Source of the DNA: a virus
Lineage: Duplodnaviria > Heunggongvirae > Uroviricota > Caudoviricetes
IMG/VR virus record: IMGVR_UViG_2597489893_000002
Location: 1 to 30,236 of that record
Length of the DNA: 30,236 nt
Reading direction: 5' to 3' (one strand)
Position 1 is the stretch's first letter; every line of letters starts with the position of its first letter. Shown piece by piece: positions 11,792 to 12,576 of the stretch. The translations under genes were made by a program, and so were the position numbers. The notes beneath the pieces were generated by a model that did no database searches, was not told where the DNA came from, and saw only the letters and a list, made by a program, of their open reading frames with translations.

Positions 11792-11867
11792 TGGTGGCCC
11801 CTACCGGACTTGAACCGGTGACCGTGCGATTATGAGTCGCCAGCTCTAACCACTGAGCTAAAGGGCC
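11792..11867 (-). tRNA. tRNA-Ile (anticodon CAU, lysidine type) or tRNA-Met
   Basis: 76-nt cloverleaf on - strand ending CCA; anticodon loop CTCATAA; near-identical by eye to E. coli tRNA-Ile2 (ileX) as remembered. Confidence 0.85.
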
Positions 11868-11870
11868 GGA

Positions 11871-11978
11871 TTACTGTTTCCTGAGTGCTTCTATGACGCC
11901 AGCAATACCGCCTAAAACTATGCCAGCAATGACAACGAGAACAATTGGATGCTTGTCAGCAAAATCCCAGAAGCCCAT
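11871..11978 (-). CDS. small hydrophobic membrane peptide, 35 aa
   Basis: ATG overlaps upstream stop as TGATG; one predicted TM helix (IVLVVIAGIVLGGIAGVI). Below the 60-aa ORF-track cutoff; found by manual translation. Confidence 0.45.
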   Translation of the reverse strand: MGFWDFADKHPIVLVVIAGIVLGGIAGVIEALRKQ

Positions 11979-12142
11979 CACTGATCCTTAGAAGCTGTTT
12001 TTAATATCGGCCATACCAATGTTACAGCTACTGCCACCAACGCCCCGTCCGATAAAACTGACAGGATTGTGCTGGTGAAATCCACCAGCACGGACAGCAA
12101 GAGAAAACCAATGGCGATTGCGATACGTGCCTTGCTTGCCAT
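11978..12142 (-). CDS. small membrane protein, 54 aa
   Basis: ATG overlaps the TerB-like gene stop as TAATG. Two hydrophobic segments. Manual translation. Confidence 0.5.
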   Translation of the reverse strand: MASKARIAIAIGFLLLSVLVDFTSTILSVLSDGALVAVAVTLVWPILKTASKDQ

Positions 12143-12576
12143 TACAGATAATCTTCCACACGAAGACCTAAACGACGGCCTACTTCTTCCAGTACTTTGT
12201 GTTCTGCTGGCTCGATTTCACCGTCCGCTTCTGCAATTGTCAGCATGTTAACGAATACTTCTTCCGCTTCTTTTGGATCGTTTTTGATATCTTCAATTTC
12301 GCGAAGGATATTCATGCGACCAACACGGAAGCCAGCTTCCAGTTGCTCGGTAAAGCGGGTAATTGTTGCAGTAATTTCGTTACCAAAATGACTAAGACGC
12401 GGATTAGAGCGGACAAGCTGATCAAGTTTCGCTGTTTCTTCTTTTTCGATTTCACCATCAGCGGCAGACACCAACAAACAGCCACCGATAATGGCCTCCA
12501 TCAGATCGCGATTCTCAACTTTTTTCAGCTCTACTTTTGCAGAAGCGACTTTCTTGCCGAACAATTTACCGAACAT
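12142..12576 (-). CDS. tciA: TerB-family (tellurite-resistance-like) protein, 144 aa
   Basis: Two-repeat TerB layout with AADGEIEKEE and AEADGEIEPAEHKVLEEVGRRLGL signatures. Position next to tRNA genes and ban matches P1 tciA. Confidence 0.8.
   Translation of the reverse strand: MFGKLFGKKVASAKVELKKVENRDLMEAIIGGCLLVSAADGEIEKEETAKLDQLVRSNPRLSHFGNEITATITRFTEQLEAGFRVGRMNILREIEDIKNDPKEAEEVFVNMLTIAEADGEIEPAEHKVLEEVGRRLGLRVEDYL

Follow-up and report, generated by a model that had tools for sequence, protein, structure and literature searches.

Along the minus strand of a caudoviral genome, a gene for a TerB-like protein, two reading frames of 54 and 35 codons predicted to encode membrane peptides, and a tRNA gene with a CAU anticodon follow one another with hardly a spare nucleotide, raising the question of whether frames this small are genes at all, whether the tRNA is expressed with them, and what such a combination could do for the phage. 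The locus lies in a stretch of 30,236 nt (IMG/VR record IMGVR_UViG_2597489893_000002, positions 1 to 30,236), the whole of which is referred to below as the window. A preliminary description, made from the letters alone, had placed the four features and their strand correctly (Table 1), had treated the small frames as lying below usual annotation cutoffs, and had implied that the arrangement was new.

The locus and its conservation in P1-like elements

The stretch is bacteriophage P1: a 1-kb query round the locus was 100% identical to the Escherichia phage P1 isolate OP279344.1, in which the locus is annotated as tciA, tciB, tciC and a tRNA. The reference P1 record (NC_005856; GenBank AF234172) gives the order tciA, tciB, tciC, trnI, followed by ban and dbn, and on the 5′ side of the tci genes it lists trnT, trnA, a "dicF-like region" and the C1-controlled operator Oban/Op72. 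Phage P7 has the same layout, terB-upf69.4-upf69.6-tRNA-Ile, between trnT and ban and under a C1 operator. P1 and P7 thus carry the same locus as the window, with the same gene order, overlaps, tRNA, downstream ban and upstream Op72. Since GenBank names all four features and RefSeq annotates the TerB/DUF3927 pair, tciA-tciB-tciC-trnI is an already annotated, published stretch of the P1 early ban operon and is not new. The 2004 P1 genome paper reportedly described the block within that operon, and it is said to have been annotated ever since. The supposition that the small frames escape annotation fell as well, as tciB and tciC are both annotated in P1 and both have PHROG families, and RefSeq annotates DUF3927.

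Table 1. Features of the tci-trnI locus and of the surrounding ban operon, in window coordinates
Feature	Position	Strand	Basis
tciA, 144-aa TerB-domain protein, soluble	12142..12576	-	ORF list, Pfam, PHROG, PDB match, OP279344.1 annotation
tciB, 54-aa DUF3927 protein, two hydrophobic helices	11978..12142	-	Pfam, PHROG 1470, hydropathy
tciC, 35-aa single-helix peptide	11871..11978 (from ATG)	-	PHROG 23152, GenBank TciC annotation
trnI, tRNA-Ile2, anticodon CAU, encoded CCA	11792..11867	-	ARAGORN, Rfam tRNA; annotated tRNA-Ile in P1, P7, RefSeq
ban, DnaB-type replicative helicase, next operon gene, 286 nt downstream of trnI	10141..11505	-	ORF list, GenBank
trnT, tRNA-Thr UGU, upstream in ban operon	13509-13584	-	ARAGORN, Rfam, GenBank
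trnA, tRNA-Asn GUU, upstream in ban operon	13587-13662	-	ARAGORN, Rfam, GenBank
Op72/Oban, bivalent C1 repressor operator overlapping ban promoter	14317..14344	.	Motif search, reference P1 annotation
Structured leader just upstream of tciA, STnc100-like, below threshold	12614..12734	-	Rfam RF02076, fold

The two gene junctions could be read directly from the sequence as the TAATG and TGATG overlaps that had been described. At the first, positions 12140-12144 read catta (coding strand TAATG) and hold the tciA stop and the tciB ATG; at the second, positions 11976-11980 read catca, or TGATG, comprising the tciB stop and the tciC ATG, so that at both junctions the stop and the following ATG have one base in common. 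The tciC stop occupies 11871-11873 and the 5′ end of the tRNA lies at 11867, leaving 3 nt between them; the spacing of "4 nt" reported earlier is right in the sense that, counted from the stop, the 4th base is the first of the tRNA. SD-like motifs stand ahead of the tciA, tciB and tciC starts. An alternative GTG start for tciC at 11981, one codon upstream of the ATG and used by the ORF lister, would give a product of 36 aa.

The allele of tciA distinguishes this isolate from the reference. A megablast match to reference P1 covered only positions 11700-12111 of the window, ending inside tciB, and resumed at 12607, leaving tciA outside. The tciA gene here is the P7 "terB"-type allele (DNA 99.4% identical to P7 terB), and it shares ~31% protein identity with the tciA allele of reference P1. 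Among the loci compared below, TerB proteins fell into two allele families, one of 144 aa and one of 141 aa, with ~31% identity between them.

To place the junctions in a wider set, loci were taken from the TciB homologue alignment (3 in species-representative genomes, 79 in viral contigs) and analysed by script. In 80 of 83 loci the last base of the TerB gene is also the first base of the DUF3927 start codon, and 71 of the 83 have a 25-60-codon frame beginning at an ATG that overlaps the tciB stop, 70 of these frames being TciC-like and one (locus L090) unrelated. The stop/start arrangement of tciA-tciB-tciC is not a product of chance; all four features are real, and they are both conserved and annotated. 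Distant loci with the TerB-DUF3927 pair and with neither TciC nor the tRNA came from an Aeromonadaceae MAG and from viral contigs L070, L077 and L079-L087.

The pair itself reaches well beyond P1. When TciB was compared by tblastn with 50,697 phage records, 38 of them matched, including P1, P7, D6 and SJ46. TerB-DUF3927 pairs are present in the SSU5-like phage Cyrano, in the virulent N4-like phage Pollock and in the lambdoid phage LMessi, where the pair lies between a Q-like antiterminator and a holin, and phage 434 has DUF3927 without TerB, among membrane proteins downstream of Q. Of 5426 complete E. coli genomes, 576 matched the 141-aa type of the pair, which is borne by chromosomes as well as plasmids and has both genes annotated by RefSeq. 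In LMessi, Cyrano, Pollock and the E. coli prophages the TerB gene stands directly upstream of DUF3927 and abuts or overlaps it, as it does here; these pairs differ from the P1 locus in lying within other transcription units and in having neither TciC nor an adjacent tRNA-Ile.

The three encoded proteins

The identities proposed for the features in the preliminary description (a tciA-type TerB protein, a two-helix and a one-helix frame, and a tRNA for isoleucine instead of methionine) were borne out by Pfam, by hydropathy and by the likeness of the tRNA to ileX. TciA matched the Pfam family TerB (PF05099) over residues 27-143 (E 2e-14; 54.3 bits vs a gathering cutoff of 24.4), PHROG 632, labelled "tellurite resistance" (E 1.9e-63), and the Klebsiella TerB structure 2JXU_A in the PDB (E 5.3e-7), the last over query residues 17-138, nearly the whole protein, and taking in both ADG...E motifs. 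By these matches TciA is a bona fide TerB homologue. Among homologues that are 27-66% identical, the acidic residues E21, D24, D40, E47, E67, D96, D118 and E125 are invariant, as are G3, K8 and K9 of a basic N-terminal M-x-G..KK motif; the residues of the paired D-G...E motifs (D40, E47, D118 and E125) do not vary between TciA-like proteins. Pairwise Nei-Gojobori estimates of dN/dS within the allele families were 0.02-0.08, and on this measure tciA is shown to be under purifying selection.

TciB matched Pfam DUF3927 (PF13064) with an E-value of 1.7e-26 and 92.4 bits, against a gathering cutoff of 25, and it also belongs to PHROG 1470 ("TciB-like"). Its Kyte-Doolittle profile has two hydrophobic segments, and VDFTS and DG motifs are invariant in the homologue alignment. 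Across all pairs, dN/dS was 0.12-0.33 (pairwise Nei-Gojobori), a substitution pattern that clearly points to a selected protein under purifying selection. The N-terminal ~16 residues of TciB change in step with the TerB allele, so that this segment and the N-terminal M-F-G..KK segment of TciA vary together between alleles, and the remainder of TciB together with TciC assorts independently. In one Logan assembly (P0010) a single-base insertion joins TciB and TciC in frame, a single case that may be an assembly error.

The status of the 35-codon frame is less straightforward. TciC has one hydrophobic segment by Kyte-Doolittle analysis and matches PHROG 23152, a family with no assigned function, over positions 1-35 of 35 (E 1.8e-26). 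Relatives were taken from the loci found with TciB, and in P1-like loci they form three types, of which i and ii are 71% identical and iii is 28% identical. All three start at the TGATG overlap, run for 34-36 codons and end 3-9 nt before the tRNA(CAU), and type iii retains the pattern M-x-F-W-x-[FY]-x-D-K-x-P. The preliminary description had made conservation of both small frames at the amino-acid level a point on which its proposal would stand or fall; for tciB this was found, whereas for tciC the answer is weak, because dN/dS between types i and ii was 0.7-1.0 (Nei-Gojobori) on just 13-14 differences. Within type ii, dN/dS was 0.18. By these values tciC is little constrained beyond its hydrophobic helix.

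Such figures give some room to the idea that tciC is untranslated, the 108 nt between tciB and trnI serving only as a 5′ leader or spacer for the tRNA precursor, in which case the frame would be open by accident. There is almost no synonymous excess between the two common alleles, a frame of 35 codons would stay open from a fixed start with a chance of ~18% at such composition, RefSeq often leaves tciC uncalled, and TciC is missing from all TerB-DUF3927 loci outside P1. We nevertheless regard this idea as rather unlikely. The three types, including the one at 28% identity, keep the same start, length and distance to the tRNA; the substitutions between types i and ii all preserve the hydrophobic helix; and where type iii keeps the shared motif, three third-position changes at the conserved F, D and P are synonymous. 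An SD-like AAGGA lies 6 nt before the ATG, the PHROG family exists, and the ratio within type ii is low. On this evidence TciC is probably translated. Its range appears to be narrow, as no TciC-like peptide was found 3′ of DUF3927 in other phages, the 34-aa ORF of LMessi, gp29 of Pollock and the ORF downstream in phage 434 all being unrelated; judged by these comparisons, tciC is confined to P1-like elements.

The tRNA and the expression of the operon

ARAGORN read the anticodon of trnI as CAU, and the Rfam tRNA model scored it at 64.7 bits. The gene shares 89.5% identity with ileX, the tRNA gene next to mug on the E. coli chromosome, and the tRNA at the ileX position is labelled tRNA-Ile by RefSeq in nearly all E. 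coli genomes. The two tRNAs (ileX taken from L004:301-376) are identical in acceptor pairs 1-5 and 7, in the D arm and in the whole anticodon stem-loop, and both have the acceptor pairs C4-G69 and C5-G68; they differ only at positions 6 and 26, in the variable loop and in compensated T-stem pairs. The C4-G69 and C5-G68 pairs and the ileX anticodon stem-loop are determinants for TilS. Because it is a close copy of ileX with an identical anticodon arm and D arm and the same acceptor pairs, trnI is, on sequence comparison, tRNA-Ile2 and not tRNA-Met. ARAGORN and some GenBank records do label it tRNA-Met because the anticodon is CAT, and it could on that ground alone be an elongator or initiator tRNA; we consider this extremely improbable, as the overall identity is to a tRNA that RefSeq annotates as tRNA-Ile, the anticodon stem-loop and both acceptor pairs are those of ileX, and the reference P1 record words the feature as "tRNA-ile2 (CAT), 89 pct identical to ileX".

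Like the lysidine-modified ileX/ileY tRNAs of E. coli, trnI would decode the rare codon AUA; unlike ileX, it sits inside an mRNA operon, just past a stop codon. In the long ORFs of the window AUA is used at 10.6 per 1000 codons and makes up 18% of Ile codons. Usage in E. coli is ~4-5 per 1000. Two of the five Ile codons of tciC are AUA, and they are not kept in other alleles. A 62-nt stretch 3′ of trnI matches Stx2c phages; that it marks a shared tRNA module was ruled out, since the Stx2c copy is unannotated intergenic sequence that neighbours a repressor-like ORF and has no tRNA close to it.

Co-expression of the tRNA with the tci genes, which the preliminary description had proposed, is plausible. 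GenBank places tciA, tciB, tciC and trnI in the C1-repressed ban operon, and the window agrees: all are on one strand downstream of Op72/Oban, ban follows in the same orientation, and between tciA and ban no strong terminator was found. The C1 operator 17-mer ATTGCTCTAATAAATTT is present as a perfect copy at 14328-14344 (-), with a second copy bearing 2 mismatches at 14317-14333 (+); operator matches in the window number 6 vs 0.14 expected. A terminator scan returned no terminator-like site in the interval tciC-trnI-ban. On the minus strand it returned a weak one inside tciA and a well-formed hairpin with a 7-T run at 14154..14135; as this hairpin stands between the operator and the tRNAs, upstream of the tci genes, transcription from Pban needs read-through. 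A simple scan for sigma-70-like promoters found no site directly upstream of tciA. Transcripts of the tci genes have been reported in a P1vir infection transcriptome (bioRxiv 10.64898/2025.12.28.696737).

Immediately ahead of tciA, the structured leader aligned to positions 31-147 of the 206 of the STnc100 model (RF02076) at 33.9 bits, where the gathering score is 47; the E-value was 5.4e-5 for a search of 3 kb and 5.4e-6 for one of 301 nt. By its bit score the leader falls short of membership in STnc100 and resembles a prophage sRNA family below threshold. At the gathering threshold, Rfam returned three tRNAs only, with no DicF match despite the "dicF-like region" of the reference annotation, and a literature search on the ban operon leader found nothing. 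The most unexpected sight, outside the tci-trnI locus proper, was that the operon leader has a family of long conserved hairpins. In a 2026 preprint, TerB is among the genes conserved beside the prophage sRNAs PasA and PasC.

A probable membrane-anchored TerB module

The most likely reading, in which we place considerable confidence, is that the block encodes a translationally coupled, membrane-anchored TerB module which would be expressed early in lytic growth, together with a codon-supplementing tRNA, as part of the P1 ban operon. The 1-nt overlaps would couple translation of tciA, tciB and tciC, so that the three Tci proteins would be made together. From gene order and overlap we infer a TciA-TciB-TciC complex, in which TciB, aided by TciC in P1-like phages, would keep TciA on the inner membrane, at its cytoplasmic side. 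By analogy, this tethering would parallel the way TerB works with a membrane protein in ter operons, where it has been reported as a partner of TerC (PMC11003894, PMC12054061). The invariant acidic residues and the basic N-terminus of TciA would suit a role in ion binding close to the membrane. Since the operon is under C1 repression and the TerB-DUF3927 pair is also present in virulent phages, the module may act during lytic growth, on the membrane or the ion homeostasis of the infected cell. The tRNA would be cut from the polycistronic transcript by host tRNA-processing enzymes, and its C34 would be modified to lysidine by host TilS, and it would supplement the decoding of AUA.

The comparison with ter operons has its limits. 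TciA is in the same domain family, PF05099, as the TerB of the Klebsiella ter operon (2JXU), and it differs in being phage-borne and in lying within a repressor-controlled early operon. The neighbours here are tRNAs, tciB, tciC, ban, dbn and dmt in place of terC, terD, terZ, terA and terE, and where TerB has TerC as its partner, TciA has a 54-aa DUF3927 protein. None of the partners terC, terD and terZ is annotated in this stretch of P1 records.

These differences bear on the proposal that TciABC is a lysogenic-conversion module conferring resistance to tellurite, to colicins or to both, as ter operons do. The TerB homology of TciA speaks for it, as do the PHROGs category "moron, auxiliary metabolic gene and host takeover" and the tellurite resistance, colicin resistance and phage inhibition that ter operons give (PMC12054061). 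According to Whelan 1995, in the part summarised in PMC12054061, however, those phenotypes map to terC, terD and terZ, and none of these flanks tciABC. The tci genes, moreover, stand behind C1-repressed Pban with no promoter-like site of their own found, and so should be silent in a lysogen, and virulent N4-like phages, which form no lysogens, have this pair too. A PADLOC-DB search gave TciA a marginal match only (E 0.0086, no stretch passing) and nothing for TciB or TciC; by these models no known anti-phage defence system is assigned to TciABC. Taken with these points, lysogenic conversion appears very unlikely.

The membrane peptides could instead be the active part, with TciB, TciC or both damaging the host as a division inhibitor or a holin/antiholin-like effector and TciA regulating them. 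The original P1 annotation does include "inhibition of cell division", and the dicF-like region annotated in reference P1 belongs to the same operon leader. In LMessi the pair stands immediately upstream of holin and endolysin genes, and the DUF3927 protein of phage 434 occurs on its own in its membrane-protein neighbourhood. Yet DUF3927 is so strictly coupled to TerB, in 80 of 83 loci, that a joint function is favoured over a free toxin. The genes, moreover, are not needed for plaque formation, as CRISPRi knock-down of tciA, tciB, tciC and trnI left P1 plaque formation intact and marked all of them as non-essential (PMC10695390). We hold a host-damaging role to be unlikely. In a survey of P1-like phage-plasmids, tciABC formed a variable region that is gone from about half of subgroup 1 (PMC9603915).

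Beyond the coupled membrane-anchored module itself, we put forward a broader role more tentatively, as a possibility about which we remain doubtful. TerB and DUF3927 may together make up a self-contained inner-membrane module of two proteins, used in lytic growth by P1-like, SSU5-like, lambdoid and virulent N4-like phages, where it might keep the membrane or metal-ion state stable or blunt membrane-targeting abortive infection, colicins or superinfection. P1-like phages would have added a third helix, TciC, and a tRNA whose processing would cut the mRNA 3 nt past the last stop.

The detail that is new here comprises the retention of the tciA-tciB overlap in nearly all loci, the estimates of selection, the spread of the TerB-DUF3927 pair among phages, and the likeness of trnI to ileX with the accompanying AUA usage. 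As a phage gene pair it is very common: roughly one complete E. coli genome in ten has it, and it recurs in several phage groups that are unrelated. Its "tellurite resistance" name has probably been over-transferred from ter operons, whose phenotypes map to genes that P1 lacks. P1 is an easy system for probing a TerB domain paired with a minimal membrane anchor.

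Repeated hairpin units in the ban operon leader

In the stretch that separates tciA from the C1 operator, the leader of the ban operon was found to hold five copies of a 100–125-nt hairpin unit, all on the minus strand. Each unit is closed by an outer stem of ~19–22 bp (CACAACAGGUAAGGGCAUUCU ... AGUGCUCUUACCGUUGUGAUG), and every copy has a folding z in the range -3.7 to -5.7. A T-arm-like motif, GGGUUC(G/A)(A/U)AUCCC, is present in copies a, b and d, the last of which starts directly after the CCA of tRNA-Thr.

Copies of the leader hairpin unit in the window
Feature	Position	Strand	Remark
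Leader hairpin unit	12715-12825	-	one of five copies
Leader hairpin unit	12975-13100	-	one of five copies
Leader hairpin unit	13208-13308	-	one of five copies
Leader hairpin unit	13404-13512	-	one of five copies
Leader hairpin unit	13850-13962	-	one of five copies

A covariance model of the unit returned 67 matches in P1-like loci, 60 of them on the sense strand of the operon, with the remaining matches being antisense, weaker and located on the same hairpins as sense-strand ones. Cells were paired in 88.6% of cases versus 41%–49% in slid controls, and compensatory changes were detected at nine pairs. No Rfam family matched the leader hairpins. These units could be processing sites, for RNase III or another activity, or tRNA-like modules.

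Copy number of the hairpin unit differs among phages over window 12754-13488, with reference P1 lacking 13243-13415 and P7 lacking both 12754-12972 and 13296-13488. In the reference P1 annotation, upl and plp span hairpin units on the opposite strand and may for that reason be spurious open reading frames; neither is annotated in P1 isolate OP279344.1.

Candidate control elements upstream of tciA

A well-formed hairpin resembling an intrinsic terminator (GCCCATCTTCGGGTGGGC, then G and a run of seven T's) separates the Pban operator from the tRNA genes at 14135-14154 on the minus strand, such that transcription from Pban of the tRNAs, tciABC and ban would need read-through. The hairpin falls inside the "dicF-like region", as placed by coordinates mapped from the reference annotation, and Rfam gave no DicF match there.

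Directly 5' of the tciA ribosome-binding site, the minus-strand sequence TCTAATAAATATGTCAC (window 12590-12612) shares the C1 operator core TCTAATAAAT and is 74% identical over 23 nt to the region of Op72, the C1 operator at Pban (repeat family D6). It carries about six mismatches to the 17-mer C1 operator consensus, and a C1 operator scan allowing up to three mismatches did not recover it.

STnc100, a prophage sRNA family, gave two matches below its gathering score of 47: one just 5' of tciA (window 12614-12734, minus strand; 33.9 bits) and a second in phage 434, just 3' of the DUF3927 gene (2610-2814 of locus L088, plus strand; 41.4 bits). STnc100, tRNAs and TerB have been described near Pas sRNAs in lambdoid prophages (2026 preprint).

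Variation in tciA, tciB and tciC, and other observations

AUA use is uneven across the open reading frames of the window, accounting for at least one third of isoleucine codons in several from the tail and baseplate region (4345-9096) and in that at 29158-29889, while the large ones at 24843-29045 contain none.

In one Logan assembly (ERR11030075; locus L092, 1501-1773), insertion of a single A ahead of an AAG codon close to the end of tciB joins TciB and TciC in frame, giving a natural 90-aa fusion (P0010); the fusion was seen in this assembly only and may be an error. In the N4-like phage Pollock (locus L089), the TerB-TciB pair is followed, a few hundred bases downstream, by a group I intron (3115-3467; 101.4 bits in Rfam) and by another, weaker match (3749-3975).

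The window represents a P1 isolate with a P7-type tciA, the allele swap covering 12142-12606 together with the 5' end of tciB (12111-12142), and the junction to reference-P1-like sequence falling within tciB, near codon 10. Across loci, TciC type assorts freely, and the N-terminal ~16 residues of TciB invariably track the TerB allele family, with MASKARIAIAIGF accompanying the 144-aa type and MVIKARLILALVF the 141-aa type. The pattern reflects a hot spot of recombination or else co-adaptation between TciA and the N-terminus of TciB.
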